58,438 nt of DNA, from positions 1-58,438 of the IMG/VR virus record IMGVR_UViG_3300034031_000030; one strand, 5' to 3'. The position numbers and the translations under genes are program-made. The notes beneath the pieces were generated by a model. That model did no database searches and was not told the origin of the DNA. It was given only the letters and a program-made list of their open reading frames with translations. Position 1 is the first letter of the stretch; each line of letters opens with the position of its first letter. Positions 1 through 41,304 of this stretch are shown here, piece by piece. The DNA is from a virus.

Positions 1-127
1 CTTTGTGGGTTACGACGCTTGAAACCACGGGAGGTGGGGGCGGCGGTGGAGGCGAGGAAATCACAGCGCCGACCGCTCCCGCCGCGCCGCTGGTCACAAA
101 GAACTGCGCCGGTTCAACGCTGGTTGT
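1..127. repeat. Terminal overlap: bases 1-127 are identical to 58312-58438, indicating closure of a circular sequence
   Basis: Base-by-base comparison of both window ends; all 127 positions match. The unique length is therefore 58311 bp. Confidence 0.97.
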
Positions 128-2412: not shown

Positions 2413-2960
2413 TTACGAACTATCCAGCACTTTACACCGAACTCTCGAAGCCCGAATATGCGGGTTTGTCCTCGGAAGCAGCGTTACTCTTGCTTCTCGA
2501 TGCCCGCTTCCCGAATCCAGAACCGGCGCAAGAAGTCGCGCGCCCGATTCGCAAGAATGAGGTTCTGGGACTGCTTGCTCCAGCCTCGATGGTGGCGCTG
2601 TTGTCCTATACGAACCTTGCGCTGGTGTTTGAGTCCTTCGATAAAGGCGACCGGCCTTCGTGCGTCGCGTGGGCTTATGCGCTGCGAGCCGCGAATGTGC
2701 TGACAACTGATGCTGACGTGGCTGCCGTTGTCGGTTACGTTGGCAGCACTGTTCCTGATCCCGTTTACAAACCGCTGCTGACATGGCCCGAACTCACCGG
2801 CGAAAGCAGCCTCGCCGAACTCGATATTGCAGTTGCTCGATTGCAGCCGAAGGCCGAAGCTGTGATGCAGCAGCGAACCGCGTTGCTTTCACAATTATCC
2901 GCGCTCGATTTCCTCTCGATGCAGTTGAGTCAGGGTGTCGATGTGGAGTTACCCGAATGA
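2409..2960 (+). CDS. Hypothetical protein in the tail-fibre block
   Basis: Translationally coupled on both sides (ATGA at 2409 and at 2957). Confidence 0.6.
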   Translation: MITNYPALYTELSKPEYAGLSSEAALLLLLDARFPNPEPAQEVARPIRKNEVLGLLAPASMVALLSYTNLALVFESFDKGDRPSCVAWAYALRAANVLTTDADVAAVVGYVGSTVPDPVYKPLLTWPELTGESSLAELDIAVARLQPKAEAVMQQRTALLSQLSALDFLSMQLSQGVDVELPE

Positions 2961-17986: not shown

Positions 17987-18627
17987 GCGTCACTCCAACC
18001 ATTCACCAGTTCACGCGCCAGGGTGCGATACGCGCGCGCCGGATGGATGCGTGGTGCAGTCTGCAGAATCGTGCGTCCTTCGGCGGCGGCTGACTCGATC
18101 CCTGAATGTCGTTTGATGGTGACACTGAGAACGCGGTCGCCCAGGCTTTCGCGCAAGCGCTGCTCGATGGTAAACGCGTCTGGGTTGCCGGTATCGAAAA
18201 GCGTGAGTAGCAAATGCCAGGAGAGATTTGGGTTTCCGCCTTTGCGCTCGGGATCGCGCGCGAAGTCGAGTGTCTTCATCAATCGCTCCAGGCCGATGAG
18301 TGAGGGCGCGGCGGGCATTGTTGGCACCAGCGCGACATCGGCCAGGGAGAGCGCTTTTGCTACATCCGGCCCCAGTGCCGGCGGGCAGTCAATCAGTACA
18401 AAGTCTGCCTTGCGGTCGATGGTGCGTTTGAGAGTGCCGGTGGTGGCATCGGCAAAGACGAGGTTCTCGCTGCTCATTTCTTCCGAAAACAAAAGCGTCA
18501 GGTCCCGTTGAGGATCGACGCCAATGAGCTGCACTCGCTTACCCAGTTCCACCAGCGCGGAGCCAAGAGTGACGGTTGTAGTGGTTTTCCCTACTCCACC
18601 CTTTTCGTTGAGGACAGCGACAATCAT
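17983..18627 (-). CDS. parA: ParA/Soj-type partition ATPase
   Basis: Deviant Walker A in MIVAVLNEKGGVGKTTTTVTLG. 214 aa. Confidence 0.93.
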   Translation of the reverse strand: MIVAVLNEKGGVGKTTTTVTLGSALVELGKRVQLIGVDPQRDLTLLFSEEMSSENLVFADATTGTLKRTIDRKADFVLIDCPPALGPDVAKALSLADVALVPTMPAAPSLIGLERLMKTLDFARDPERKGGNPNLSWHLLLTLFDTGNPDAFTIEQRLRESLGDRVLSVTIKRHSGIESAAAEGRTILQTAPRIHPARAYRTLARELVNGWSDA

Positions 18628-27160: not shown

Positions 27161-27568
27161 ATGAATTCAACCCCCCACAAACCGCGCCTGCTGATTGCGG
27201 AAGACAACGGCTCGATCCGTGACGTTCTCGCCATTCTTTTGGCCGTAGAAGGCTTTGATGCTGTTTTCGCCATCAACGGCGCTCAGGCCCTGAAAGCGTT
27301 TCAGGATGCTGAGAGCGCAGGACGTGCGTTCGACCTCTGCATCTTCGACCGTCAGATGCCAGTTTTGGGCGGCTTTGAAGCCGCTTGTCTGGTGCGTTGC
27401 GAGAGCGCGCACGTCCCCATCGTTTTCTTGACGGCCGCGCCCCACGAAGTCACGCCCGAGATGATGCAGGAAGTTGGTGCCGTAGCCCTGTGGGCCAAGC
27501 CCAACGACGTTGTTGGCATGGCGGTCCTGATTCGGGAGGTGCTGGCCAGTGCCGAAAAAGATTCCTGA
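27161..27568 (+). CDS. Stand-alone response-regulator receiver (CheY-like) domain protein
   Basis: LLIAEDN (acidic pair), CIFDRQMPVLGG (phospho-acceptor Asp context), VFLTA (Thr), WAKP (Lys-Pro). Confidence 0.85.
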   Translation: MNSTPHKPRLLIAEDNGSIRDVLAILLAVEGFDAVFAINGAQALKAFQDAESAGRAFDLCIFDRQMPVLGGFEAACLVRCESAHVPIVFLTAAPHEVTPEMMQEVGAVALWAKPNDVVGMAVLIREVLASAEKDS

Positions 27569-28274
27569 TAAAAAGGGCGGCTATGTCTTTGAAGAAGATG
27601 TCGTCGGTTACGTCCTCAACGAAATAATCGAGGATGGAAATACATCGTCAGCCGCGCCCAAACCGGGTGCGGCTGTCGTCGATGATGAAACCTCTGCCGA
27701 AGCCGTTGATGAAAGCGGCCTGACCTACAAGTTGCGGATGTTTGTCGATCACTTTCTAATTTGCGGCAACGCCTCGCGTGCCGCGCGACTCGCCGGGTAT
27801 TCGGAGAGATCTGCGGGCAGCATCGGCTCCGAAAACCTGAAGAAACCTGAAGTTAAAGCCCTTATCGAGGCGAAAATGGCCGAAGTGGCCATGAGCCGGA
27901 ATGAGGTTTTGATGCGCCTGTCACAGTTCGGTCGTGGCTCGATCGTTCCGTTTCTGAACCCGGAAGGTCATGTCGATCTCACCACGGATGATGCGAAGGA
28001 ACACCTCCATCTCGTGAAGAAAGTGAAGGTCAAAAAGCGTGTCGGCGGGCCGGAAGAGGACCCATACACCGAAACCGACACGGAAATCGAACTCCACGAT
28101 CCGCAATCTTCCCTGGTCCAAATGGGCCGCCACCACAAGCTCTTCACCGACAAGGTAGATGTCGAGCACGCCAACCCAATTAAAAAAGAAGATGTCACAG
28201 ACTACGACAACCTGGAACCCGGAGAGCTTAATAGCCGAATCGAAGCGGCGCTTAAAGATGCTCCACGCGGCTAA
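27549..28274 (+). CDS. terS: Terminase small subunit
   Basis: GNASRAARLAGYSERSAGSIGSENLKKPEVKALIE matches the Terminase_2-type HTH pattern. It lies directly upstream of terL. Confidence 0.85.
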   Translation: MPKKIPDKKGGYVFEEDVVGYVLNEIIEDGNTSSAAPKPGAAVVDDETSAEAVDESGLTYKLRMFVDHFLICGNASRAARLAGYSERSAGSIGSENLKKPEVKALIEAKMAEVAMSRNEVLMRLSQFGRGSIVPFLNPEGHVDLTTDDAKEHLHLVKKVKVKKRVGGPEEDPYTETDTEIELHDPQSSLVQMGRHHKLFTDKVDVEHANPIKKEDVTDYDNLEPGELNSRIEAALKDAPRG

Positions 28275-29958
28275 CGCCGATCGGGATTTGCAAAAGCTGC
28301 TGTATGCGCAATGCCAGAACGACATCTTGTTCTGGTTCGATAACTTCGTCTGGGCCACTGATCCGCGCGAAATCACGGCGAAAATGCCGATGATCCTGTT
28401 TCCGCGTCAGCGGGAAATGGTATTGTGGCTGCAGGAGCGCGAGGCGAACCGCGAAGGCGGCCTAGTTGAGAAATCGCGCGACTTTGGCGCGACCGTGATT
28501 TGCTCCGGCTACGCGATTCACGGCTGGTTGTTCCGCGAGGGCTTTCGCGCCGGCTTTGGCTCGCGCAAGCTGGAATACGTCGATAACAGCGAAGATGACA
28601 AAACCATCTTCGCTAAATTGCGTTTTACGCTCGATAACTTGCCGTGGTGGATGAAGCCCGCGCCGGCGAATTACCTTTCCAAATACTGCCTGCTCAAGAA
28701 TTTCGACCGCGACAACTCGATCAGCGGCGAAGGCGGCGCCTCGATCGGGCGCGGCGACCGTACTTCGCTTTATTTCGTCGATGAAGCAGCGTTCCTCGAG
28801 CGCCCGCACCTGGTCGATGCAGCCCTGTCTCAAACAACGAACACGCGTTTCGATATCTCCACGCCCAATGGCCTGGGCAACTCGTTTTATAAAAAGCGCC
28901 ATGGCGGAAAAACGCCCGTTTTCTCCTGCCACTGGAAACAGGACTCGCGCAAAAATCACTGGCTTATCGAGGATGCGGACAAAAACGTGATTGCGCGTGG
29001 CAATGGTGACATCGATGTTGCCGTTCCCGAAGGTTGTCGCGCTTATTACCCGTGGTACGAAAAGCAAGTTAACGAGCTGAACGATCCCGTCGTCATCGCC
29101 CAAGAAATCGACATCGATTACGCGGCGTCGGTTGAAGGCATTTGCATTCCAGCGGCGCACGTCCGCGCTGCAGTCAATCTCCACCTCCGAATCGAAATAC
29201 CGCAAAACGGAGCCCTCCGCGCGAGTGCCGACCTTGCAGGCGGCGGCGCTAACCAGAACGTCGTGGGCTTTATGCGCGGGCTTGTTCTCCAAGATGATAT
29301 CGAAGCCTGGCGCAATCCATCCTCGAATTACAACGCCACCAAAATCAAGAATCTTTGCGAGGCGCGCGAGGCGGCCAGTCTTTGCTACGACGCCGGCGGC
29401 GGCTATGGCGCTGCTGTGGCCGACATGGCGCGTGATGCCGACAACCCGCCCCGATTCAAGGTGCGTGCGCTGCACGGTAACGATTCACCTTCCCTGACCG
29501 AATGGCCCGAGAAGGGCGACAACGGCCACCGCAAAACCAGCCGCGATAAGTTCGTCAACGGACGCGCAGAGCGCTGGTGGATGCTGCGCGAACGTTTCCG
29601 TAAAGCCTGGGAAACCGTCGAGGGACACAAGGAATATCCGCTCGACGAACTGATCTCGATTCCCAACCACGCGGAACTGATCGCTGACCTTTCCAAACCG
29701 CTGGTCGTGAGCAGCGGCACGACGGGAAAGCTCGGCATCGAATCGAAAGAAAAGATGAAAGAGCGCGGCGTTGAGTCTCCCGACTTCGGCGATATGCTCG
29801 CGCAGTTAATGGCCCCCAAGTCCGCTGACGAAGCGCTTGACGATCTTCGTGATCGATTGAAGGCACAGGCCGCAAAGAACACCGCCCCAAAATCCGTCGA
29901 TGAGGCACTTAACGGACTCCGTGAGCGAGTCCGCGCGCTGAACACACCGAAGTCGTAA
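28258..29958 (+). CDS. terL: Terminase large subunit
   Basis: GATVICSGYAIHGW and Walker-B-like SLYFVDEAAF, with appropriate length and position. Alternative starts at 28159 or 28192. Confidence 0.88.
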   Translation: MLHAANADRDLQKLLYAQCQNDILFWFDNFVWATDPREITAKMPMILFPRQREMVLWLQEREANREGGLVEKSRDFGATVICSGYAIHGWLFREGFRAGFGSRKLEYVDNSEDDKTIFAKLRFTLDNLPWWMKPAPANYLSKYCLLKNFDRDNSISGEGGASIGRGDRTSLYFVDEAAFLERPHLVDAALSQTTNTRFDISTPNGLGNSFYKKRHGGKTPVFSCHWKQDSRKNHWLIEDADKNVIARGNGDIDVAVPEGCRAYYPWYEKQVNELNDPVVIAQEIDIDYAASVEGICIPAAHVRAAVNLHLRIEIPQNGALRASADLAGGGANQNVVGFMRGLVLQDDIEAWRNPSSNYNATKIKNLCEAREAASLCYDAGGGYGAAVADMARDADNPPRFKVRALHGNDSPSLTEWPEKGDNGHRKTSRDKFVNGRAERWWMLRERFRKAWETVEGHKEYPLDELISIPNHAELIADLSKPLVVSSGTTGKLGIESKEKMKERGVESPDFGDMLAQLMAPKSADEALDDLRDRLKAQAAKNTAPKSVDEALNGLRERVRALNTPKS

Positions 29959-29975
29959 TCACCCACTGAGGCAAC

Positions 29976-31560
29976 ATGGCAATTAAGAAATTCTGGAACT
30001 GGAACAAGGACAAGCAGAACGCAATCGTGAGTACGGTCGATCCCGCGCCGATCGCAGACTCAATCGCTGTCGAGCCGCCCGTAGAGACGGCTCTAGCCAC
30101 CGTCGGCGTCAGCCCTGAACAGTCTGCGGAAGTAAAGCGCTTGTTCGCTGATCTCACTGCGGAAATTCAGCGTGCTGAAGAAAGCGGCCGCGATGCGCAC
30201 CAGTTGCGCCAGGCGTTCGCGTATCTCACCAACGATCCGCTTCGTTTCCAGACACCGCACGATCCGCGTTTTCGACCCTACACTCCGTTGTCAGTCGATG
30301 CCTTGCGCATCATCGCGCGTTCGGTCGATGTTTCTGCCGACTGCATCGCTTACATCAAGCGCGAAGTCACCAAAGTGCCTCTGGCCGTTGTTCCACGCGA
30401 TTCCGCCGACACCAGCAAAGCGACTCTGAAAGCGAAAGAAGAGGCCGAGGAATGGATGTCAGAATCCGGCGGCCTTGGCGGCTACGGCATCGAGCGCAGC
30501 GTATTTGAGGGCCAGATCATCGACGACCTGCTCATTGTCGGTGCAGCGGCTATTCTCTACGAGTTTGAAACCGTCGGTGAAATGCACGACAACAGCCCGA
30601 GTCAGGTTCGTGCCATCGATGGCGGAACGATTCGCCCCCTGGTGACGGCACAGGGATTCCCGATCGGATACGACGGCGAGGCTTTTGAACAATGGATTCA
30701 GGGCGTGCCTTGCGCGCGGTTTACGCGCGACGAGCTGGCATACATCAGCCTGCCTAGCTTCAGCCGCACCGACAGTGTGTACCCGATGTCGCCCACGGAG
30801 AACGCGGCGCTCCAGCTCTATACGCTGATGAAGATCGATGAGTGGAACCGCACATGGTTGACCGACGGCAGCGGCTACCGCCGCTGGATGAAGCTCAATC
30901 CTGATGTCACTCCAGAGCAGGCCAGCGCATGGATTGACATCATCAATCTGCAAACCCAGGGTATCGCTGCAGAGCGTCAGAAAATGGGCGTTCTACCGGG
31001 GGAAATGACCGGTGAAGAATCACGAAAGGATCAGGACTTCGAGGGCTTCGAACACACTCGCATCAATCGCATTTGCAAAAGTTACGGCGTTAATCCCGCG
31101 TCGGTGGGACAGCACTCGCAGCAATACAAAGACTCGCAGGATGCCGCGATGGATTCGTCGCGCGAAGGTCCAGTTGCGGAAATTCTCACCTTGCGCGAAC
31201 TGCTTTATAACGCGCTCCTCAAACGTAAGGGCTGGGGCTGCCTGAAGGTTACGGAAGATATTCCAGCACCGAATGAAACGCCGACGGAAAAAGCCGCGCG
31301 ACTCAAAACGCTCATCGAGAGTGGCCAGATCACAGTCAACGGCGCCTTATCCGAATACGACCTCGATCCGGTCGATGGCGGCGATCAGATTCTCGTTAGC
31401 AGCACGGTCATTCCTCTTTCCAGGCTGTTGGCTGCACCGGCCCCAGGTGAAACACCTCCAGGTGATGAACCGACCGGAGACGACGATAAAGGCGGCGGGC
31501 CAGATGACGATAAGCCTGGTGGCGGCACTCCAACGCCAAAAGGCGGCAAAGAAGTTTCTC
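29976..31560 (+). other. Portal-like region of the giant ORF
   Basis: Synteny (terL, portal, protease-scaffold, MCP) and size (~520 aa). No motif-level proof. Confidence 0.6.
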
Positions 31561-34500
31561 GCGCGGAAGAGAGTACGGTCGAATTCGAGCCATCGAGACT
31601 CGACCGTACTCCATTGCCGGAACCCTCAGGCTCGCTTGCAGATGAAATAGCCGAGACAAAGCACACATACAGCTGCGCGATGCTTGTCCTCGACGATGGC
31701 TCGGCCGAGAGGGCGCGTGCATTCGCGTCTGCGCTTATCGATCCGGCTCATCTTGCCGGTGATGGGCTCGTCAAAGAATCCCACGTCACCGTGCTTTACG
31801 GGCTGGAAACGGACGTGGCTGCCGAGTTGGCCGCGCTGATCGATTCGGCGAATATCGGTCCGATAACCGTGGAGATCCTCGGGGTTTCCATCTTCGGAGA
31901 CAGCGTGCAGAACGATGGAACAACTTACGACGTTGTAAAGCTCGATGTCGCACCGTCGGGCGAATTGCTTCGCTTGCGCGAGTTGCTGAAGCAGCTTCCC
32001 TATCACGAAACATTTGGCGACTTCAAACCACACATCACGCTCGCTTACGTCAAGCCCGGCGCGGGTGCTGACTATCTGGCGAATGTTTGCTCCCTGACCG
32101 GGACCGTCCTGAGCTTTGACGCGCTCAGTTTTTCCAACCGTTATGATGAGCAAACTTCGATTGCTCTCAAGTCCGGGGACGCGCAAGCTGTTGCGCGTGC
32201 TTTAGGCCAGTGGGAGCGCAAGGCGTTGAATCGTGTTGCGCGCGGTCAAAGTCCCGTTTGCGAGTTTGACTCTGATGTGCTCGATGATGAGATGTGCTCG
32301 AACGTCCTGTCGCGTCTGGAAGGCGCCACCGGTAAGGAGAGCATTCGCGCAGCGTTCGCGGTTTGCCGCGTCCTCGATGCGAATGGCCACTCCCATGGAA
32401 AAGACGGAAAGTTCGACGGTGGCTTAGGCATTGCCGGGCTGTCGCAGGCGCCACAGCATCACGACATCACAACGGTTGACGCGGCGACGGGCGCAAAAAA
32501 AAACACGCAGCTGACGACTCACGGTGACTCGGTAACACCCGAGCAGGCGGTCGAATGGGCGGAGCACATCGGGATTCCCGATCATGCAGCCAAAGCGATC
32601 GGAGACATGGTGAAAGGCGGCCAGATCTCCGACGATCACGGTCTTGTCGATGCCATCAAGAAAGCAGCCGAACCTGGACACGCCTCGATAAACGTGGTCG
32701 GGCCTCAGCCGGGACCGGATGCAACCGCACCGGCCACACCTGATCCGGCCAGCGGCCCTGCGGCTCACTCCTTCCTGATTCACGAATGGCTTCAGCCCCA
32801 AAAAACCGGTGTCTGGATGTCGAAGAAGGGGACAGTCTCGATCCCGAGCTATGGCGATGCGGTAACACCAGAATCGGCCGAAGACTGGGCAAAGCACGTT
32901 GGCTTCCCTCCACAGACAGTGGACGCAATTAAAGATGCTGTCTCGCTTGGCCTCATCACCGACGATCACCAGCTCGCCAAGGCGTTGGGCGATATCTCCA
33001 AAGTCGTCCACGTCGGCGGACTGACTCACAAAACTGCAGCGAAAGAAATCCTAAGCGGCCAGCCCGTTGACCAGGTTCTCGCCACCGCGCAACAGGCGAA
33101 AGAAGCACTTCAAGCAGCCACGGCCATTGGCATGGCTGGTGTTACGCCCCCGGCACCGACACCCGCTGCACCGCCCGCTCCCGTCGTTGCTACGCCTCCC
33201 ACGGCCCTACCCGTCGCTACGCCGGAAGACTGGGATGCGTTCGCACAGCATTTCGGCATTAACGGCGGACTCTCGACGAATGCCAACAATGCCATAGTCG
33301 AGAGCGCAGCTGCGGGGGAGATTGAGGCTAAACACGTTTCACCGGTTTTGAGCGTGGCCACTCAAATGGCGCTCGACGAAGGCAAGCCGTATGTCAACAC
33401 CGGCCACGTCAAGAAGTCAATCTGGATGCTGAAGAACGGGCATCTCGGCACAGATGGCGTTAACGCCAAACTTCCCGATCCGGCAGGTCCGGCGATCGTC
33501 GTTCCGTCCGGCCCTGCCGCTGCTTCGACGCTGACTTCGCCGAAGGAATGGCAGAAGCACGTCAAGTCACTTGGCTCCGGCTTTCCACCGGTTTCCTCCG
33601 CGGTTTTAGACCAGGCTATCAAGCAGGGCAAGGTCGCACCCGAGGAGATTGAAGAGGTCCTCAACCTGGCTACCGGTTACGCCCAGCAGACGGGCTGGAA
33701 AGCCGTTAAGCCGCAACACCTCACCAAAGCCATCGGAAGCGTCGCCGCCTCCAAAATTTCGGCACCACCCTCATCTGCAGTAGCGCCTGAAGACTATGTG
33801 TCTTTCGTTCAGTCCGTCAACGTCGGTATTTCGGACGTGCCGCCAAAAATCGCGGACATCATCCAGGCTCACCTCAACGACGGCACGTTGCACCCCACGC
33901 AGGTCGGGGACGTGCTGACACACATGGTTGCCCACGCGCTCGCCGATAACTCAACGCAGATCTTCCCGGACCACGCCCACAAGGCGATCGGGGAAGTCAA
34001 GAATGGCCTGTCGCCTCAAGTGGCTCTGCCCACGGCCGCGCCTGCATCCCCTGCAGTTCCGCCAGTTTTGAGTCCGGCAGTTGTGAGCCCGCCGGCTGCA
34101 CCAGCGGCAGCCGGAGCTCCGACCGCTGTAGCTCCGGCTGCTGCGCCAGGTTCGACCGTACTCGATCCTCACGCCGTCGCCGCTGGAACGCCCGCACTCA
34201 AAACTGTGGGAAAGCTTGACGATGCGCACTTCCAGAGCATTCCCGACAAGACGCTTTCCGAACCCGCTTTACCGCCGCTCAAACCGGGCCAAAAGCGCGC
34301 GACTGGCATCATCGTCGTCGAGCCCGACGGCAAAGTGTGGATCTACGAGCCGAAAGGTCATTACGCCGGCTACGAGCACACCTTCAGCAAAGGCGGACAT
34401 GAAGACGGCCTGACGCTGCAGCAGAACGCCCACAAAGAGCTTTACGAAGAGCTTGGGCTTACCGCGAACATTCTTTCGTGTTTGGGCGATTTCGAGACGA

Positions 34501-36686
34501 GCGGCACCAACACGCGTTATTACATCGGAGTACGGTCGGGCGGAGATCCCAAAGATGCTGAGAAGGGACTGACCCAGAAGTCGCAAGAAACCGAGAAGGT
34601 AAAGCTCGTTTCGTTCGATGAGGCCGGGAAGCTGCTCAACAGTCCGCGCGATCAAAAAGTGCTCGCCGCGCTCAAGGCGCATTTAGGTGAACCGGCCGTT
34701 GCAGCTGCAATCACGCCGTCTGGCCATGTCACGGTGCAGGGACATAAGCTCGATGTCGATCACTCGAAACCGGTGTCAGTCACCGACGTGGACGACTTCA
34801 AGGCGCAGGGCATTAAGTTCTCGACCAATGGCGAAACCTCGGTCAAGAAAGCGATCACCGACGGCACGATCAAGTCGCATGGCCACCTGGTTGAATTGAT
34901 GGCCATGACGCAGGCCGCGTCCAAGGCCCACGGTCATACCAGCGTCAACAACACGGGCTTCCAGCAGGCAGTCAAACACGCCGGCGTCGAAGCCGCGCTC
35001 GACGCAGCTCATCAAGGCGACGCCGACGCAAAAGCATTCAGCGCACATCTGGAAGCGCATTCCTATCACTCGCTTCTGGCGCAGGCCGAAGCCGCCAAGG
35101 CTGCTAAAGCGCAGGCCGACGCAGCGCGTTACCAAAACCAGATTCCCGTGTTCCACGCGGCTTCTCCAGCGGAACATAAGCACAAGCAGATTCCGCTTGG
35201 AAAAGCGGTCAAGAAGGGCTACAACGACGGCGCGCTGTACGAAATGCCCGACGGCCAGCAGAACTACATCAAGACGCCGAAGAAGCCAGAGGTCGCACAT
35301 AACGAGCATCTCGCCAACGCGATTTATAAAGCGCTTGGCATCTCGGCGCCCGAGTCGAAGGTGTTCACCGATGGCGGCAAAACGCAGTACGCCTCGAAGC
35401 TCATCCCGAACCGGGGCGAGTTAGGCGACCACGGCATCGATGCCCATATCGCGCAGGACATCCTCAAGGGCTTTGCTGCCGACGTGCTGCTCGGGAACCA
35501 CGATGTTTTAGGAAACGGCGACCGCCCGCTCTCCAACGTCGTTGTGGGGCATGGCGCCAACGGAAAGACGACCGCGCACCGCATCGATAACGGCGGCGCG
35601 ATTCTCTTCACCGGAACCGGCAGCAAGAAGCCCGAGTCCGTCAAGAAGAGCCTGACCGAGTGGACGAAGTTTCCCACGTCGAACCCCAACTACGCGAAGG
35701 TGTTTGCTGCGGCCGGTCATACCCGTTCCGAGCAGGTGCCAGGCATCGGTTTGCAAATCAAAGCGGTTGTCTCGCTACGCGATTCGCATGGCGGCTGGGA
35801 CAAATTCATCGAGCAGGCCGCGCCTGGGATGCCGGCAGCGCAGAGAGCGCAGACGGCGGAGATTCTCGAAACCCGCACGAAGCTGCTCGAAGACAAACTC
35901 AAGTCTCTGCCGGGCGCGAACTCGCTCGTTGGCCAGCGCAATTTCGTTTACGCGCCGAACTCGAAGCAGGAACACGCAATCATCGCCAAGCAGAAGGGCT
36001 TGCAACTCACGAAAGACGAGCGCGATGCCGTAAGAACGCACAAAAGCTCGCCGGTTTATAATAGTGGTTTGCTGGGCAATGCCGCTTTGAGCGCAAGCAG
36101 CCAGCAGAAAGCACAGCACCTCGATTCGGCGATAAAAAAGGCGGGCGCAATCGGCGTGGATTCGGTTCTCTCTCGCAACCTCACACTGGCACCTCACGAA
36201 GTGGCCGCGTTCAAGCTAATGCAAAAAGGTGACATTATCGCGGCGACGCCGACACACAACAGCACCTCCGACACCAGCGGCACGTTCGCTGGACGAAACG
36301 TGCAGTACTGCATTCTGGCTCCTGCTGAAACACCAGGCATCGCGGCGCGGCCAATCACCGGTCTGCACGCGGGAGAAACGGAAATCATTCTGCCTCGCGG
36401 CTTGAGCTATCGCGTCGTCGCGGTAACGGAACCAGGCCATCCCGACGCACCGGAAACGCCGCAGGGCTGGACTTGGAACAGTTCGGCGCAAGTCCGATTG
36501 ATCTTGGAACCGATCATCCCCGGCGTCAACGATTATGAGGGACATGGAAAGGCGCACTATACCAGCGAGCAGTCCATCAAAGATAAGGTGACTCAGGGAG
36601 GTGTCAAGATTGCGAACGCGCTGCAGCCGCCGAACCTGAGCAACCTACCGGATCATATCCACAATCACCTTTATCACTCACCGTAA
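29976..36686 (+). CDS. Giant portal-fusion polyvalent protein (portal-like N-terminus, then 2H phosphoesterase, repeats, Nudix, kinase-like and ADP-ribosyltransferase regions)
   Basis: An uninterrupted 2236-codon ORF with a GAGG RBS. It is the only portal candidate between terL and the protease/MCP. Domain motifs are listed in the sub-features. Confidence 0.9.
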   Translation: MAIKKFWNWNKDKQNAIVSTVDPAPIADSIAVEPPVETALATVGVSPEQSAEVKRLFADLTAEIQRAEESGRDAHQLRQAFAYLTNDPLRFQTPHDPRFRPYTPLSVDALRIIARSVDVSADCIAYIKREVTKVPLAVVPRDSADTSKATLKAKEEAEEWMSESGGLGGYGIERSVFEGQIIDDLLIVGAAAILYEFETVGEMHDNSPSQVRAIDGGTIRPLVTAQGFPIGYDGEAFEQWIQGVPCARFTRDELAYISLPSFSRTDSVYPMSPTENAALQLYTLMKIDEWNRTWLTDGSGYRRWMKLNPDVTPEQASAWIDIINLQTQGIAAERQKMGVLPGEMTGEESRKDQDFEGFEHTRINRICKSYGVNPASVGQHSQQYKDSQDAAMDSSREGPVAEILTLRELLYNALLKRKGWGCLKVTEDIPAPNETPTEKAARLKTLIESGQITVNGALSEYDLDPVDGGDQILVSSTVIPLSRLLAAPAPGETPPGDEPTGDDDKGGGPDDDKPGGGTPTPKGGKEVSRAEESTVEFEPSRLDRTPLPEPSGSLADEIAETKHTYSCAMLVLDDGSAERARAFASALIDPAHLAGDGLVKESHVTVLYGLETDVAAELAALIDSANIGPITVEILGVSIFGDSVQNDGTTYDVVKLDVAPSGELLRLRELLKQLPYHETFGDFKPHITLAYVKPGAGADYLANVCSLTGTVLSFDALSFSNRYDEQTSIALKSGDAQAVARALGQWERKALNRVARGQSPVCEFDSDVLDDEMCSNVLSRLEGATGKESIRAAFAVCRVLDANGHSHGKDGKFDGGLGIAGLSQAPQHHDITTVDAATGAKKNTQLTTHGDSVTPEQAVEWAEHIGIPDHAAKAIGDMVKGGQISDDHGLVDAIKKAAEPGHASINVVGPQPGPDATAPATPDPASGPAAHSFLIHEWLQPQKTGVWMSKKGTVSIPSYGDAVTPESAEDWAKHVGFPPQTVDAIKDAVSLGLITDDHQLAKALGDISKVVHVGGLTHKTAAKEILSGQPVDQVLATAQQAKEALQAATAIGMAGVTPPAPTPAAPPAPVVATPPTALPVATPEDWDAFAQHFGINGGLSTNANNAIVESAAAGEIEAKHVSPVLSVATQMALDEGKPYVNTGHVKKSIWMLKNGHLGTDGVNAKLPDPAGPAIVVPSGPAAASTLTSPKEWQKHVKSLGSGFPPVSSAVLDQAIKQGKVAPEEIEEVLNLATGYAQQTGWKAVKPQHLTKAIGSVAASKISAPPSSAVAPEDYVSFVQSVNVGISDVPPKIADIIQAHLNDGTLHPTQVGDVLTHMVAHALADNSTQIFPDHAHKAIGEVKNGLSPQVALPTAAPASPAVPPVLSPAVVSPPAAPAAAGAPTAVAPAAAPGSTVLDPHAVAAGTPALKTVGKLDDAHFQSIPDKTLSEPALPPLKPGQKRATGIIVVEPDGKVWIYEPKGHYAGYEHTFSKGGHEDGLTLQQNAHKELYEELGLTANILSCLGDFETSGTNTRYYIGVRSGGDPKDAEKGLTQKSQETEKVKLVSFDEAGKLLNSPRDQKVLAALKAHLGEPAVAAAITPSGHVTVQGHKLDVDHSKPVSVTDVDDFKAQGIKFSTNGETSVKKAITDGTIKSHGHLVELMAMTQAASKAHGHTSVNNTGFQQAVKHAGVEAALDAAHQGDADAKAFSAHLEAHSYHSLLAQAEAAKAAKAQADAARYQNQIPVFHAASPAEHKHKQIPLGKAVKKGYNDGALYEMPDGQQNYIKTPKKPEVAHNEHLANAIYKALGISAPESKVFTDGGKTQYASKLIPNRGELGDHGIDAHIAQDILKGFAADVLLGNHDVLGNGDRPLSNVVVGHGANGKTTAHRIDNGGAILFTGTGSKKPESVKKSLTEWTKFPTSNPNYAKVFAAAGHTRSEQVPGIGLQIKAVVSLRDSHGGWDKFIEQAAPGMPAAQRAQTAEILETRTKLLEDKLKSLPGANSLVGQRNFVYAPNSKQEHAIIAKQKGLQLTKDERDAVRTHKSSPVYNSGLLGNAALSASSQQKAQHLDSAIKKAGAIGVDSVLSRNLTLAPHEVAAFKLMQKGDIIAATPTHNSTSDTSGTFAGRNVQYCILAPAETPGIAARPITGLHAGETEIILPRGLSYRVVAVTEPGHPDAPETPQGWTWNSSAQVRLILEPIIPGVNDYEGHGKAHYTSEQSIKDKVTQGGVKIANALQPPNLSNLPDHIHNHLYHSP
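31571..31611. repeat. Class I palindromic element (expanded loop) in frame at the portal/extension boundary
   Basis: GAGTACGGTCGAATTCGA-gccatcgaga-CTCGACCGTACTC is translated as ESTVEFEPSRLDRT. Confidence 0.9.
31640..32110 (+). other. 2H phosphoesterase (LigT-like) domain signature
   Basis: Two H-x-T-x motifs, HVTV (31781-31792) and HITL (32031-42), about 83 residues apart. Confidence 0.65.
32531..33940 (+). repeat. Five tandem degenerate ~50-aa repeats in protein (a sixth lies at 34775-34925)
   Basis: TPEQAVEWAEHIGIPDHAAKAIGDMVKGGQISDDHGLVDAI / TPESAEDWAKHVGFPPQTVDAIKDAVSLGLITDDHQLAKAL / TPEDWDAFAQHFGINGG... / SPKEWQKHVKSLGSGFPPVSSAVLDQAIKQGKV... / APEDYVSFVQSVNVGISDVPPKIADIIQAHLNDGTL... 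Confidence 0.7.
34290..34690 (+). other. Nudix-like hydrolase domain
   Basis: GIIVVEPDGKVWIY... and a Nudix-box variant GGHEDGLTLQQNAHKELYEELGL (KELYEELGL in place of REUxEExGU; the first Glu of the box is not conserved). Confidence 0.6.
35200..35650 (+). other. Protein-kinase-like (HipA / PI3-4K-like) segment
   Basis: NYIKTPKK, EHLANAIYKALGI, LLGNHDVLGNGDRPLSNVVV and RIDNGGA resemble the Lys, alphaC, catalytic-loop and DFG-like elements. Speculative. Confidence 0.35.
36000..36480 (+). other. R-S-E type ADP-ribosyltransferase domain (C3/VIP2/Alt-like)
   Basis: LTKDERDAVRTHKSSPVYNSGL, VLSRNL (Arg), HNSTSDTS (S-T-S) and HAGETEIILPRG (E-x-E) occur in the canonical order and spacing. Confidence 0.7.
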
Positions 36687-36762
36687 GTCGAATCATCTGC
36701 AAAGAAAAGGTGGTAAAATTAGAGAAGAGAACGAGCTTGGAAACGAGCCGGGGGAGGCTTCC

Positions 36763-36960
36763 ATGACTAGCGAAGAGAACGTCAAAACGCAGAGCGACAG
36801 CGCCGAAATCCAGGCGACAACATTTGTCGTCAATGGACAGCCGATGACTCTGGCCGAACTCGCAGAAACACGGAAGAAGCAACAGCCGGAAGACGACACC
36901 GCTTCGGACGACTACGACGAGATGATTCGTCAGGAAGCTGCCGAGCGCGCTGCAGGCTAA
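36763..36960 (+). CDS. Hypothetical small acidic protein
   Basis: GGGGGAGG RBS. 65 aa. Confidence 0.5.
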   Translation: MTSEENVKTQSDSAEIQATTFVVNGQPMTLAELAETRKKQQPEDDTASDDYDEMIRQEAAERAAG

Positions 36961-36978
36961 CACCGATCAATAAATATG

Positions 36979-37003
36979 CGGCATCACAAAAAAGTGATGC
37001 CGC
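36979..37003. terminator. Hairpin GCGGCATCAC-AAAAA-GTGATGCCGC
   Basis: A 10-bp perfect stem lying 19 nt after the stop codon. Confidence 0.55.
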
Positions 37004-37012
37004 CACTAATAC

Positions 37013-37044
37013 AAAGAGTACGGTCGAAATCGACCGTACTCTTT
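37013..37044. terminator. Class I palindromic element
   Basis: AAAGAGTACGGTCGAAATCGACCGTACTCTTT followed by TT. Confidence 0.65.
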
Positions 37045-37054
37045 TTCGTAAAAG

Positions 37055-37564
37055 ATGAAAAGCACGTTGACCGTATGGCAAAGCGGTGAATACAAAGTGT
37101 GGGGATCTCGGGATGCTATTAACGCTTCTTCCGACCCGGACTTTGTGGTTAATATCGCGCTCGATGAAATAGACTGCTTGGCTCAGGCTGAGACGAATGA
37201 ACTGGATCGTTTGGTGGATGTTGTATTCGCACGATTGCCTGCAGGTCAAATCTTTTATCAGTGCCCCGATTTCGCAGAGATACTAGGAATTCGCGCAGCG
37301 ACTTTTCGGCATCATTGCCGCGCTGTGATGCCGAATAACGGGGATGATTATCGTTTTCGCCTTGACTGCGAAAAGCATATTCATGGACTCCGCCGTGTCC
37401 TACAGAAGATCATTCTCACGGGGCGCAAAACTCACCCAGAGTTTCAGCTATCGCATCGCTACAGAAGCCAGCGGCAAAAAGCATTTTCGACTCAAAACTG
37501 TGGGAGTAAATTAAAAAGCCGCCCAAATGCAAAAGCAAAGGGCGGGAATTACTGGAAATTATAA
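37055..37564 (+). CDS. Putative DNA-binding regulator, paralogue of 25224..25577
   Basis: Shared motif block (see 25224). Followed by a class II palindrome, a class I element and iteron block B. Confidence 0.5.
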   Translation: MKSTLTVWQSGEYKVWGSRDAINASSDPDFVVNIALDEIDCLAQAETNELDRLVDVVFARLPAGQIFYQCPDFAEILGIRAATFRHHCRAVMPNNGDDYRFRLDCEKHIHGLRRVLQKIILTGRKTHPEFQLSHRYRSQRQKAFSTQNCGSKLKSRPNAKAKGGNYWKL

Positions 37565-37570
37565 CCCGAG

Positions 37571-37591
37571 GATGTGAACCAGGTTCACATC
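37571..37591. repeat. Class II palindrome, perfect 21 bp (GATGTGAACCAGGTTCACATC)
   Basis: Read directly. Confidence 0.95.
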
Positions 37592-37619
37592 GGAGTACGG
37601 TCGAATTCGACCGTACTCC
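37592..37619. terminator. Class I palindromic element
   Basis: GGAGTACGGTCGAATTCGACCGTACTCC, a perfect 28 bp. Confidence 0.6.
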
Positions 37620-37635
37620 TCGCTGTATTTCGGTC

Positions 37636-37674
37636 GAATTGCCGCGCGACTGCCGCGCCGTTGCCGCGCCGTGA
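37636..37674 (+). repeat. Iteron block B: 39 bp identical to 25811-25849
   Basis: Direct comparison. It lies 56 nt upstream of the protease/scaffold start. Confidence 0.95.
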
Positions 37675-37729
37675 TGCCGCCCTGCCCTGTTGTCAATCTT
37701 GTCCTCGAAGCCTTGATGTTTCGAGAACA

Positions 37730-39931
37730 ATGAGCAACGCAACCAATTCCTCGCCCGCCCCAAAATCTGAAAACTTTTTCATTCCGTTCGCGCCTCTGTC
37801 CCGTGGCGACCGCGATAACCGCATCGTGCGTGGCTATTGCTACACCACGGCGCGCGTGCGTGGCGACCGCTACAACCTGAAGCGCTCCGCTTTGGAGCGT
37901 TCGGCCAAGCGTTACATGGAAATGCCGTGCATCCGTGCGATGCACCAGCAGATCGCAGCCGGCAAAGCTCTCAGCGTTTCTTTCGATGACAAGGGCTGTT
38001 TTATCGAAGCCTTCATCAGCGACGATAAGGAATGGCAGAAGTGCGTTGATGGCGTGTATCGCGGCTTTTCGGTTTATGGCCATCCCCTCATCGCACGCGG
38101 AATGGACATCGAGGAGTTCGACTGGATTGAAACCAGCCTCGTCGATCGTCCCAAAGACGCCGGCTCTCTCTTTTCCGTCGGGCGCGTTGAAGGTACGGTC
38201 GAATCCGTCACCACCATCGAGCTTCCCGAAGATGCGACCGATGAGCAGGTCGAACTCGCCCGGTGCGAAGTCTCTTCATCTTACGTTGTCCCCTCAGAAG
38301 AAAGTGAGGGAGACATCGACGAATCGACCGTATCTCTTGGCCCGGTCGAGCGCGGCTACAACCCTGCCCAACCACGGGACGGCGAAGGCAAATGGACCAT
38401 CGTGCGCGGTCATCGCGTGAGCACAACCGGTGCGGCCATTACCCACGACCACATCCATCATGCCGTTGCCAAATTCGGACTTGGCGACTTAGCCCAGAAG
38501 AAACTGCTGCAGGCCCACGCCGACGGCAAGCTCACGAACGACCATCACCTGTACCGCGCCATCGCTCACGCGACGGATGCGCATGATACAGCGAGTGGCG
38601 TGACAACGGGCTCCCACAATCCCGGACCGTGGCACTGGGACGAAGCCATCAAGGCTCATGGCCACGGCGGAACCCACGAAGAAAAGCGCACCTGGGGCGC
38701 ACCTCACGCTGACGACTACAAGCACCTTACCGACAAGGAGCTGGCGACTCACCTCACCGAGAAGATCGCAGAAGCTCCGGTCAAGGCTCACAAGGATCTC
38801 GTCAAAGGCGACCGCGTGCTGCACGGCGGTCGATTGGTCGAGATCACCCACGTTAAGCAGCGCAAGGACAAGCCCAATACGGTTAAGGCACACGTCGTTC
38901 ATCCCGACTCCGGGAAGTTGGAAGAAGGCTCTCTGCACTCCGTTTCGCACTCCAGCGATTCATTCAGCGGCGCTAACCCTTCGACCTTCCACATCCCCAC
39001 CAGCCTCGTCATGGGCGCTGCTGCCGAGTTGCGTCGTCGCAAAGGTTTGTCACCTGTGAAACGCGGGGAAGAATCTGAACCTGGTTCACAAATCGACGGC
39101 GAAGGCGTTGGTGAAGCCAGCGCCGAAGCTGCAGGCGATGCTGTCGAGCGCGCTATCACTTCCGAGACTCCGGGCTTACCAGTCCGTGAAAACCTTGAAG
39201 GTGAAATCGTTCGCGGTGACTATGACACCGAATCGGTTGAAGCCGAGATCGACGGGTTGATCGAAGCCCTGTGGGATGCCTACGACGGTGAAGAAAGCGA
39301 ACCCCTTGTTCGCCGCGCTGTTGCGGCCGCTCTCGCGGTTCTTAATGGCGATTCCGCATCCGCATCGAGCGTTGCCCGCTCTGAAGGCGAAGCCATCGGC
39401 GACAACGCTCCTAACATTGAAACCACTTGCTCGGTTGTTGATAACGGCATCAGCAACGACATCGAGCCTAACCCGGACATTGTTCAACTGGTTGCACGCG
39501 CCGAAAGCGCTGAATCCGAACTTGAATCCGTCCGCCGTCTCGCAGACGAATCATTGTCCACAGTCCGCGCCTCCGAAGAATCGGCCTTGAGCCGGTTGGA
39601 AGCTGCAGAAGCGACAGTGACCGAGCTTGCAGACGCGCTCAAGAAACAAGAAGAGGAAATCGCAAGCCTTCGCGCCGTTCCCCTGAACGCCAGTCCTGTC
39701 CGCCGTAGTGAATCCTCTGAATCGACCCAGACCGGGGCAGTCGCAGCTCCGCGCGCGTTTGCGGCTAACGCAATGCTGGACACGACCCAGAGCAACGCGG
39801 CCCGACGCACAGCGCTGCAGACCGAATTTCAAGAGCTTCAGCGCTCTCTGCACACCGAACCCAGCACCGCCAAGCGCGACGCTGGAGCATCTCGCCTCAT
39901 CGTCATCCAAGACGAATTGACGCGGCTGTAA
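37730..39931 (+). CDS. Prohead protease fused to a scaffold-like C-terminal region
   Basis: The N-terminal ~170 aa resemble HK97-family prohead proteases (FFIPFAPLSRGDRDNRIVRGY...AMHQ...GFSVYG...ETSLVDRPKDAGS). The C-terminus is acidic and coiled-coil (SELESVRRLADESL...VTELADALKKQEEEIASLRA). It lies directly upstream of the MCP. Confidence 0.7.
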   Translation: MSNATNSSPAPKSENFFIPFAPLSRGDRDNRIVRGYCYTTARVRGDRYNLKRSALERSAKRYMEMPCIRAMHQQIAAGKALSVSFDDKGCFIEAFISDDKEWQKCVDGVYRGFSVYGHPLIARGMDIEEFDWIETSLVDRPKDAGSLFSVGRVEGTVESVTTIELPEDATDEQVELARCEVSSSYVVPSEESEGDIDESTVSLGPVERGYNPAQPRDGEGKWTIVRGHRVSTTGAAITHDHIHHAVAKFGLGDLAQKKLLQAHADGKLTNDHHLYRAIAHATDAHDTASGVTTGSHNPGPWHWDEAIKAHGHGGTHEEKRTWGAPHADDYKHLTDKELATHLTEKIAEAPVKAHKDLVKGDRVLHGGRLVEITHVKQRKDKPNTVKAHVVHPDSGKLEEGSLHSVSHSSDSFSGANPSTFHIPTSLVMGAAAELRRRKGLSPVKRGEESEPGSQIDGEGVGEASAEAAGDAVERAITSETPGLPVRENLEGEIVRGDYDTESVEAEIDGLIEALWDAYDGEESEPLVRRAVAAALAVLNGDSASASSVARSEGEAIGDNAPNIETTCSVVDNGISNDIEPNPDIVQLVARAESAESELESVRRLADESLSTVRASEESALSRLEAAEATVTELADALKKQEEEIASLRAVPLNASPVRRSESSESTQTGAVAAPRAFAANAMLDTTQSNAARRTALQTEFQELQRSLHTEPSTAKRDAGASRLIVIQDELTRL
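39073..39091. repeat. Class II palindrome copy inside the protease/scaffold CDS (reads EPGSQ)
   Basis: atcTGAACCTGGTTCACAa. Confidence 0.75.
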
Positions 39932-39960
39932 CCCATCAAATTTAGTTGGAGAAATTTAGA

Positions 39961-41304
39961 ATGAACGTTCCTTTTGTTGGTAGTCTGGCCGTCGGTGGCG
40001 CCTTCCTGGCAGCCGGCTTTATGGCTCCTAAAACCGTCAACGCTGGCGGCATCATGGTGCCCACGCACATCGTGCAGGCTGACGCAGCACAACGCGCTGC
40101 CGTCAACACCCCACCGGTCATTCGTGGCGAGTTGTCGCCCGAATTGCGCGCCGATCTCGACCGTGTATCGCGCGGCGAATTCGGTGGCGACCTCAGCGGT
40201 TTTGCCGCAAACATGGCCGCTGAAATCGACAGCTTGCGCCAAGAAGTTTCTCGCGCGATCACGTCCTCGACGGCAAACCTGCCGATCCGCGAAAACCTCG
40301 AAGCGCCGGCGATTGTCCTCGTGCCCGAAGACACGCCGTTCCGCAATACCCTGCCCCGCGTTCCGGGCAGCGGCCTCGCAGCGGTCTGGAAACAGATCGT
40401 CACCCTCGGCGGCGGCTGGGGCACTGATGTTGACCAGCCCGGCGGCGGTGCGAAGGTCCGCCAGTTCTACACCGAAAGCACAGCGCCGGTGACTCAGAGC
40501 ACCACCTACGCCACGAAAATGGCGCAGTACAAGCTGATGGGCGCCTATGGCAGCGTCACCACCTTCGCAGCTTCGGCCGGTGCTAATTACTCCGACCTTC
40601 GCGCGGAAGAGCGCCGTAACGCTCTGGCCAACTTCTTCCTCAACGAAGAGAACGCCCTCATCAACGGTTCCAGCACCTCGACGGCTGCGCCGTGGGGCGA
40701 TGGCGCTACTGCAATGGCGTATGATGGCATCCTCTCGCTGACGGCGACCGCCAACGGAACACCTGCGGCCCAGGTGCAGACGGCTGTTGGCCCGTTGACG
40801 CTCGACCACTACAACGCGCAGTTGCGTCGTTTGTGGAACTACGGTGGCCGTGATCTCTTCATTCTCCAGAGCGCGGATGTGACGTTGTGGCTGCAAAAGT
40901 TGTTGCGTGATGCAGGCGAACCCTATCGCCTCGATGTCAAAGACCAGGCGAATGCAACAATGGGCTTCCACGTTGCGGTTTACATCTCGCCGGTTAACGG
41001 ACAGCGCGTGACGATCATGACCTCGCGCTTCATGCCTGCCGGCACCATCGAGTTCGGCTCGTTCCTCACCGACACCGGGCGGAATGCGTTTGAAATCGAT
41101 GTTCTGCCACAGGCTCCTCTCCCTGCCGACGTGCAGCGCCCGGATGGCTCCAAGCAGTTGATCCAGGGCTACTACGTCACGGAGTTGGCTCGCCAGGCGG
41201 ACAACCCTGAAGAAGAGTTGTTCATGGTGAATTGCTACAGCGTGCCGAAGATGAAAGACGCACGCTTGTTCGCCAAGTCCACCGGTGTCACCGAACCGGC
41301 GTAA
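39961..41304 (+). CDS. Major capsid protein (putative HK97-fold)
   Basis: GGAGA RBS. ~447 aa. Positioned after the protease/scaffold and followed by a very strong hairpin. Confidence 0.7.
   Translation: MNVPFVGSLAVGGAFLAAGFMAPKTVNAGGIMVPTHIVQADAAQRAAVNTPPVIRGELSPELRADLDRVSRGEFGGDLSGFAANMAAEIDSLRQEVSRAITSSTANLPIRENLEAPAIVLVPEDTPFRNTLPRVPGSGLAAVWKQIVTLGGGWGTDVDQPGGGAKVRQFYTESTAPVTQSTTYATKMAQYKLMGAYGSVTTFAASAGANYSDLRAEERRNALANFFLNEENALINGSSTSTAAPWGDGATAMAYDGILSLTATANGTPAAQVQTAVGPLTLDHYNAQLRRLWNYGGRDLFILQSADVTLWLQKLLRDAGEPYRLDVKDQANATMGFHVAVYISPVNGQRVTIMTSRFMPAGTIEFGSFLTDTGRNAFEIDVLPQAPLPADVQRPDGSKQLIQGYYVTELARQADNPEEELFMVNCYSVPKMKDARLFAKSTGVTEPA

Follow-up and report, generated by a model that had tools for sequence, protein, structure and literature searches.

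A phage portal protein fused in a single gene to 2H phosphoesterase, Nudix, kinase-like and ADP-ribosyltransferase domains

IMG/VR virus record IMGVR_UViG_3300034031_000030 was analyzed over its whole length of 58,438 nucleotides (the window), and among its head genes lies one gene whose product joins a phage portal protein to a long chain of enzyme domains. This portal-effector fusion gene (29976..36686, + strand) encodes a protein of 2236 amino acids (aa) and 236.5 kDa. As an earlier reading made from the letters alone (the sequence-only reading) had claimed, it is a single open reading frame (ORF) of 2236 codons that runs from 29976 to 36686 (+) without a stop and begins 18 nt past the stop codon of the large terminase gene terL (29956-29958); this can be read directly, and three assemblies agree on it. 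A GAGG ribosome-binding site, likewise read directly from the sequence, is found 4 nt before the ATG of the fusion gene (29968..29971, + strand). The chance of 2236 stop-free codons is estimated at ~4e-35 at the local base composition, and profile matches are spread along the entire 2236-aa product, a coding signal that covers its full length.

An exact 127-bp terminal overlap (window 1-127 against 58312-58438) shows the assembly to be circular and its unit to measure 58,311 bp, and the ENA assembly is circularly permuted, beginning at window position 26895. The overlap and the permuted second assembly together show that the genome is complete. The ENA contig, which has nearly the length of the window, and the Logan contig match the window without a single difference over 19.8 and 11.2 kb and contain the entire ORF, and the fusion ORF is free of DNA differences across the JGI, ENA and Logan assemblies, all of which are metagenomic and may derive from the same reads. 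The junction between the portal and the linker behind it, proposed earlier as the place to look for a missed stop or a frameshift, was found to contain neither a slippery heptamer nor a homopolymer; a programmed frameshift or a homopolymer error at this site was therefore rejected. Since the ORF is identical in three assemblies, shared reads being possible, and the junction is clean, it is not an accident of assembly. No DNA near-identical to the window was found among GenBank phages.

The N-terminal part of the protein is a portal domain of the HK97/Phage_portal type (aa ~60-500; 30153..31475, + strand), recognized through PHROG, Pfam and a solved-portal profile. PHROG 2662 matches aa 90-502 (E 1.5e-27) and PHROG 12 matches with E 1.4e-14; the Pfam family Phage_portal (PF04860) matches aa 123-455 with E 7e-7 and 29.2 bits, under its gathering score of 39.1. 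A profile of the four available portal relatives matches chain p of the solved portal 8q7d (E 3.3e-11). The gene lies directly downstream of terL and encodes the only recognizable portal among the large ORFs of the complete genome, which bears out the earlier view of it as the sole portal candidate. With profile matches over the portal core, and as the sole portal of its genome, the protein belongs to the HK97-like portal family. Solved portals have their C-terminus in the crown, on the side of the capsid interior. The portal domain leads into an acidic linker rich in G, P and D, delimited by composition (aa 487-559, isoelectric point ~4.1; 31434..31652, + strand), which is a candidate release site. 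Equivalent low-complexity linkers follow the portal in two relatives, P0002 and P0155, and the spacers between the domains farther along the chain are either acidic and G/P/D-rich or P/A-rich.

The cargo begins with a 2H phosphoesterase domain (aa 560-740; 31653..32195, + strand), assigned by PF13563, PHROG 755 and the positions of its two motifs, H603-x-T605 and H686-x-T688. The Pfam family 2_5_RNA_ligase2 (PF13563) matches aa 602-703 with E 8.5e-8 and 32.8 bits against a gathering score of 27. The motifs HVTV (603-606) and HITL (686-689) are spaced 83 aa apart as had been noticed from the letters, and with the family match they place the domain in the 2H superfamily. Homologues of this domain occur in huge uncultured phages, and comparison of the segment with PDB sequences gave no 2H-family match.

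Next to the 2H domain lies a conserved module, ALGQWERKALNR ... HxxxxGKF (aa 741-815; 32196..32420, + strand), which the protein has in common with P0002 (aa 515-592) and P0009 (aa 104-205). It stands right behind the portal linker in P0002 and near the N-terminus in P0009, and it could be an anchoring or processing element. This 'WERKALNR' module (taken as aa 741-830) was considered as a diverged MuF domain and rejected, the hhalign probability being 0.4 %. Between portal and cargo, no Pfam match to MuF (PF04233) was found, and a jackhmmer search from the MuF region of the kinase-like family described below misses this protein.

The middle of the chain is occupied by five diverged ~55-aa repeats (aa 849-900, 959-1010, 1077-1136, 1183-1240 and 1265-1325; 32520..33950, + strand) with P/A-rich spacers between them, followed by a long P/A-rich spacer recognized by composition (aa 1345-1400; 34008..34175, + strand). 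A sixth repeat (aa 1596-1653; 34761..34934, + strand) is conserved ahead of the kinase-like domain in 10 further family members, P0002 among them, and P0002 holds three independent repeat copies (E 4e-7 to 8e-4). The six repeats seen by the sequence-only reading are thus real units, although diverged. Their DNA is at most ~70 % alike among the six copies, a divergence that marks the repeats as old duplications. A resemblance of the repeat to part of a 785-aa scaffold-like protein encoded downstream ('LTNDHHLYRAI' versus 'ITDDHQLAKAL') was rejected, with E 2.6 in a hidden Markov model search and E 0.4 or worse in BLASTP.

The Nudix hydrolase domain (aa 1438-1570; 34287..34685, + strand) was identified by PF00293 and by alignment to MTH1, NudE and RppH. 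PF00293 (NUDIX) matches aa 1440-1565 with E 6e-11 and 42.9 bits, compared to a gathering score of 21.1, and the variant Nudix box pointed out earlier is located at aa 1473-1495 (G1473-x5-L-x7-K-E-L-x-E-E-x-G-L). Measured against the consensus GX5EX7REUXEEXGU, the box keeps E1488, E1491 and E1492, and the domain is a member of the Nudix family. At the C-terminal end of the chain lies an R-S-ExE ADP-ribosyltransferase (ART; aa 1990-2190; 35943..36545, + strand). The Pfam family ADPrib_exo_Tox (PF03496) matches aa 2006-2152 with E 2.5e-6 in the whole protein and E 3e-8 when the segment is searched alone, the latter scoring 33.7 bits against a gathering score of 23.4. R2067, S2096-T-S2098 and E2134-x-E2136 occupy the places that the sequence-only reading had given to an R-S-E signature, and the domain belongs to the R-S-E family (C3/VIP2/Alt clade). 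Against PDB sequences, the segment gave only a weak alignment to a C3-like ART: its ExE/QxE loop aligns (E 0.3) to the staphylococcal ADP-ribosyltransferase structure 1ojq.

Between the sixth repeat and the ART lies a protein-kinase-like domain (aa 1735-1985; 35178..35930, + strand), recognized from K1766, E1777, N1841, D1843, N1854 and D1871 and from structure prediction with AlphaFold2 (AF2) and Foldseek. The AF2 model, made from a 29-sequence alignment, reached a predicted local distance difference test (pLDDT) score of 93.2 and a predicted template modeling score of 0.91. Foldseek found 366 PDB matches at E<=1e-3, and all those among the best 50 listed are kinases. The top solved structures are CtkA (E 6e-7) and HipA (E 6e-7 to 5e-5 for these matches, with template modeling scores of about 0.5), followed by CK1 and Vps34. 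The bilobal model, the Lys/Glu pair, the Asp...Asn loop and the metal-binding Asp are those of a protein-kinase-like fold, and the six residues named above are invariant across the 29 sequences as well as present in the window protein. The earlier suggestion of a HipA- or PI3-4K-like segment is therefore right at the level of the fold, with no profile for it in the libraries: the domain is without a Pfam, NCBIfam or PHROG model, and searches of Pfam and PDB sequences with the segment alone and with the 29-sequence profile identified nothing, returning a marginal HipA_C match and a spurious beta-propeller match. The HipA_C match reached E 0.14 and 12 bits where the gathering score is 30.5, which excludes the domain from the HipA family (PF07804). 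On the strength of the model, it may work like a HipA/CtkA-type kinase. As far as can be judged from the residues, the catalytic motifs look intact in all four enzyme domains.

An exhaustive HMMER search with the kinase-like domain over 50 %-identity cluster representatives revealed a large family: 2,522 representatives match at E<=1e-3, of which 193 reach E<=1e-30, and almost all of the matches are embedded in proteins of 500-3,400 aa. Conserved across the family are GSNxGG..Y..DG..YVK, E(HLAN), GFAADVL..NWD..G...DN and RIDNGG. Among its 153 best members, which include three relatives (155 proteins were retrieved in all), a homologous ART is present in 86, with few exceptions immediately behind the kinase-like domain, and 28 have a homologous Nudix domain, which is upstream in 27 of them. 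A homologue of the MuF region is present in 71 of the 155 retrieved proteins; typical MuF-bearing members are about 1,050 aa long, in the order MuF, kinase-like, ART. When 36 members were scanned with Pfam, Phage_Mu_F was found in 11, Portal_Mu in four and Acb1 in one. One member, P0132 (3416 aa), is a single chain with five copies of the kinase-like/ART didomain. In a library of predicted viral structures, the kinase-like model matches an 'HK97 portal protein' of 1,201 aa from an uncultured phage, uncharacterized proteins of the Gordonia phages Sixama and GodonK, and a Mycobacterium phage Onyinye protein that bears an ART annotation.

The fusion of a portal to such a chain is conserved. The closest relative, P0002 (2025 aa), is encoded on a separate 76-kb JGI contig and is 55 % identical over the portal and 48 % identical over aa 1406-2224. 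Its order is portal, linker, ALGQWERKALNR module, repeats, Nudix, repeat, kinase-like and ART, with PBECR1 in place of 2H, and its locus is syntenic (small terminase, large terminase, fusion, scaffold and SU10-type capsid). P0155 (774 aa) is a more distant portal relative, 35 % identical, that bears another C-terminal domain behind a G/P/D-rich linker. In this ~180-aa domain, '...VDVMV...HGIELK...' resembles by eye a PD-(D/E)xK nuclease motif, a putative assignment, and the P0155 contig is probably locus L006. From the replacement of 2H by PBECR1 in P0002 and the different end of P0155, it follows that cargo is swapped while the portal is conserved, in the manner of polyvalent and polymorphic proteins. 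Portals of another type bear related chains: P0012 (2509 aa) is composed of Portal_Mu, Nudix, repeat, kinase-like and ART domains, and P0015 and P0028 of Portal_Mu, kinase-like and ART domains. Close relatives of the portal itself were not found in IMG/VR contigs or in GTDB genomes; JGI metagenome contigs gave one locus with a close portal relative, and the last protein search added only P0154 and P0155. The portal clade is thus rare, too rare for a host assignment.

The neighboring genes form a head module in the order small terminase, large terminase, fusion, scaffold and major capsid protein. The small terminase (27549..28274, + strand) matches PHROG 51 with E 1e-29, and the large terminase (28159..29958, + strand) is 62 % identical to that of a syntenic relative, locus L003. 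The scaffold-like protein (37574..39931, + strand; 785 aa, with a coiled-coil C-terminus) matches PHROG 9427 with E 9.5e-4 and is syntenic in L003. The major capsid protein (39946..41304, + strand) is of the SU10 type (PF17236, E 5e-15); SU10 is a prolate-headed podophage. The 785-aa ORF had been taken for a prohead protease, and this assignment was rejected, as its support consisted of the one PHROG match at E 9.5e-4 with nothing in Pfam or PDB. Two small ORFs of 65 aa (36763-36960) and 169 aa (37055-37564) lie between the fusion and scaffold genes (window 36690-37570). They have no family matches and lack counterparts in L003, where eight other small ORFs occupy this position, and they are candidate immunity or moron genes. 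Directly before the small terminase, the gene table of the ENA and Logan contigs places a 135-aa ORF (27161-27568, + strand) for a response-regulator receiver domain (PF00072), which is an unusual neighbor for a packaging module.

Outside the head module, the genome contains a set of genes of the temperate or phage-plasmid-like kind, namely a tyrosine integrase, a regulator with helix-turn-helix (HTH) and ImmA/IrrE (M78) domains, a DnaD-like helicase loader, a ParB-HTH protein and a ParA ATPase, in five ORFs at 7062-8237 (+), 9660-10841 (+), 14538-16517 (-), 16712-17983 (-) and 17983-18624 (-). An 869-aa protein (2783-5392, + strand) with a Laminin_G_3/concanavalin-like lectin domain and matches to virion structural PHROGs is probably a tail fibre or receptor-binding protein.

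With reasonable though not high confidence, we read the gene product as a portal subunit with a C-terminal polyvalent effector train that is stored in the head, cut at its linkers and ejected to modify the host. The earlier proposal of a head-associated, multi-enzyme polyvalent effector fits the evidence, including the annotation of two proteins of a cultured Yersinia phage, fHe-Yen8-01 gp129 and gp131, as particle-associated. If the C-terminus emerges from the crown inside the capsid, the 181.5-kDa extension would sit in the head, and because the cargo is within the portal polypeptide, up to 12 copies per head would be provided without a separate adaptor of the MuF type. The cargo would form a chain of beads on a string, with 2H, the ALGQWERKALNR module, five helical repeats, Nudix, the sixth repeat, the kinase-like domain and the R-S-ExE ART carried in this order on acidic or P/A-rich linkers. 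This chain would first be stored inside the head, then be cut off the portal in one of the linkers during maturation and finally exit with the DNA through the portal and the tail channel. T4 Alt is cut by the prohead protease, and processing has been reported for the Dar proteins of P1.

The enzymes are predicted to act in the first moments of infection, once they have reached a cytoplasm supplied with NAD+ and ATP. With NAD+ as donor, the ART would modify proteins of the host by ADP-ribosylation, and the kinase-like domain would, like CtkA, HipA and T7 gp0.7, phosphorylate targets in the host that are most likely proteins. The Nudix domain would hydrolyze ADP-ribose, NDP-X (nucleoside diphosphate) compounds or RNA 5' ends. 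For cleavage by the 2H domain, the predicted substrates are cyclic or 2'-5'-linked (oligo)nucleotides or the ends of RNA. Targeting of CBASS (the cyclic-oligonucleotide-based antiphage signaling system), Thoeris or NAD-based immunity is possible. The sequence-only reading had considered twelve such appendages sterically extreme, which appears overstated. Twelve extensions of 181.5 kDa amount to an estimated ~2.2 MDa and ~2,600 nm3, or ~2 % of the space that the packaged 58.3-kb DNA fills. Other internal cargoes, such as the T7 core or the N4 virion RNA polymerase, reach the same order of magnitude.

Several observations weigh against the storage-and-ejection reading. The position of the C-terminus in the crown is borrowed from other portals, and the AF2 model of the portal, made from a 4-sequence alignment, is unusable (pLDDT 36). 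Also, how a procapsid would nucleate on a ring of 236-kDa subunits is a structural question, to which is added that of where the cargo is cut. There is no peptidase domain inside the fusion ORF, and the 'protease' next to it is a marginal match, so that no agent for the release step was found; processing by an adjacent prohead protease, which the sequence-only reading had proposed, is accordingly weak, with its one PHROG match at E 9.5e-4 and no Pfam or PDB support. On the side of the substrates, the 2H domain matches a generic 2H model and gives no match to Acb1 (PF23474) at E<=1, and the Nudix box has Leu instead of the first Glu and Lys instead of Arg, a variant that is conserved in P0002. 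Furthermore, the kinase-like domain is without a characterized close relative.

Other explanations deserve consideration. The enzymes could work in the producing cell, for example to blunt late abortive-infection signaling, with the extension trimmed before or during assembly so that the virion has a plain portal. Such a role would suit a gene that sits in a late head operon and a product with a long acidic linker directly behind its portal, but it is unlikely given that homologous proteins bearing the Nudix and kinase-like domains are annotated as particle-associated in a cultured phage, that the same domains are habitually joined to MuF, a head-internal protein, and that fusion to a structural protein made in low amount is a poor way of delivering cytoplasmic enzymes. 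Alternatively, the extension might stay covalently tethered and serve as an internal core, a DNA-spooling element or an ejection conduit, or its ~900-aa region of linkers and repeats might thread the tail channel and let the C-terminal enzymes enter the cell without being detached. In the first of these versions its role would be mainly structural. No protease or cleavage site has been identified, the five repeats with their P/A spacers (aa ~815-1430) resemble a long extensible spacer, and the enzymes of the most conserved order are at the far C-terminal end, all of which such tethering would explain. Yet a channel for one DNA duplex cannot hold twelve chains plus DNA, and most relatives carry the enzyme train on MuF or as a free protein, so that tethering to the portal is not required for function; we regard a permanent tether as distinctly improbable.

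The temperate features of the genome (integrase, ImmA/IrrE-type regulator and ParAB) and the exchange of cargo between relatives would also be expected if the phage carried a polymorphic toxin that serves bacterial competition or benefits the lysogen, as proposed for MuF toxins (Jamet et al. 2017, PMC5576092), and not a means of taking over its own host; the variable, non-conserved small ORFs downstream could include immunity genes. No immunity gene was identified among them, however, and four enzymes in fixed order suit a multi-target tool of early infection better than a single killing toxin, which makes this explanation very unlikely. Least of all do we expect an artefact, in which an error of assembly or sequencing would have joined two or more genes. 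All data are metagenomic, and one set of reads may underlie the three assemblies. Against an artefact, JGI, ENA and Logan give an identical ORF with no homopolymer or slippery site at the junction, the independent, 48-55 % identical relative P0002 has the same continuous fusion, Portal_Mu proteins bear the same C-terminal train, and the coding signal runs the full length. A more specific version of the effector train is that Nudix, kinase-like and ART domains make up a functionally coupled relay, built around an apparently undescribed kinase-like family and delivered at a fixed dose by the portal. In such a relay, the ART would add ADP-ribose to a target, the Nudix domain would trim it to a phosphoribosyl mark resistant to host ADP-ribosyl-hydrolases, and the kinase-like domain would prime the target or regulate the ART. 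The kinase-fold protein SidJ of Legionella, which acts on the SidE ARTs, is a loose precedent. This relay is speculative and rather doubtful; if true, 12 copies of the machine would enter each infection, a dose fixed by the anchoring to the portal.

If the ejected effector train is accepted, the window provides a complete-genome example of a phage whose portal subunit would carry an injected arsenal. It also draws attention to a large kinase-like family that has no library model and is tied to an ART, and often to Nudix, in proteins anchored by MuF or by a portal. Members of the family include proteins of cultured Yersinia, Aeromonas, Pseudomonas, Gordonia and Mycobacterium phages, in which the action of the kinase-like/ART pair on the host in the first minute of infection is tractable. 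This family, with its fixed link to ART and Nudix, is the part most worth pursuing.

The atypical Ser/Thr kinases CtkA of H. pylori and HipA are the best structural matches of the kinase-like domain, and the Lys, Glu, Asp, Asn and Asp positions of active kinases are conserved in it; it differs from them in having no significant sequence match and in its small, helical C-terminal part. Acb1, the anti-CBASS 2H phosphodiesterase, is likewise a phage-encoded 2H fold, and one member of the kinase-like family has a true Acb1, but the 2H domain described here matches PF13563 and not PF23474. T4 Alt is packaged, processed in maturation and injected with the DNA, and it modifies host RNA polymerase and other proteins. 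Alt, which is cited in PMC5512222, resembles the fusion in being a head-linked R-S-E ART and differs in being a separate, single-enzyme protein that is targeted to the capsid and lies outside the portal polypeptide.

Closer in sequence are the proteins of ~90-kb phages. In Yersinia phage fHe-Yen8-01, gp129 is a 2146-aa 'ADP-ribosyltransferase toxin' with a kinase-like domain at aa 1578-1796, gp131 is a homologous Nudix protein, and both are annotated as associated with the phage particle. In these two proteins and in relatives from other phages of this size (Aeromonas ST4, Escherichia ECML-606-1, Pseudomonas Jeremy and Dolphis), the kinase-like and Nudix domains share homology and 31-37 % identity with those of the window protein. 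The arrangement is different in that the domains are on separate genes without a portal fusion, with the Nudix gene downstream of the ART/kinase gene. A literature search on CtkA- or HipA-like kinases in phages, on fHe-Yen8-01 and on packaged Nudix anti-defense enzymes found nothing specific. The MuF-ART and MuF polymorphic toxins and the portal-MuF fusions of Microbacterium and Arthrobacter phages (PMC5576092, PMC7302621) offer another parallel, as they combine a head-internal anchor and a VIP2/C3-type ART in one gene, as is the case here; portal-MuF and MuF-VIP2 fusions are known in cultured Microbacterium phages. Compared to the MuF-ART toxins, the window protein is anchored by the portal itself with no detectable MuF, is about twice as long and possesses 2H and Nudix domains in addition.

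The polyvalent proteins are also among the closest known systems. Iyer, Burroughs, Anand, de Souza and Aravind (Iyer et al. 2017, PMC5512222) described these as giant multi-enzyme polypeptides of terminase-portal phages, predicted their packaging and injection, and reported PBECR, 2H and InPase domains joined to MuF or portal. A survey of NAD/ADP-ribose systems (Iyer et al. 2022, PMC9503650) likewise includes Nudix and ART domains joined to head and portal proteins. The window protein shares with the polyvalent proteins of these two papers the nature of a multi-enzyme giant encoded among the head genes of a terminase-portal phage: 2H, Nudix, kinase-like and ART domains stand in one polypeptide behind a portal N-terminus. 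The kinase of PMC5512222 is described as lacking the C-terminal subdomain, as having its conserved His separated by an insert from the conserved Asp, and as occurring mainly in Verrucomicrobia-Chlamydia and Bacteroidetes; compared by that description, it shows no obvious fit to the N-[WH]-D ... DN ... RIDNGG domain found here. The exact train of portal, 2H, repeats, Nudix, kinase-like and ART domains was not found in the available parts of PMC5512222 or PMC9503650. The sequence-only reading could not match a direct portal fusion with this domain order to anything described; as a claim of novelty this is wrong at the level of the kind of system, in view of the fusions reported in both papers and of the Portal_Mu proteins P0012, P0015 and P0028. 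The fusion is a long and real example of the polyvalent effectors already described, which are predicted to be packaged in the head, rather than a new kind of system.

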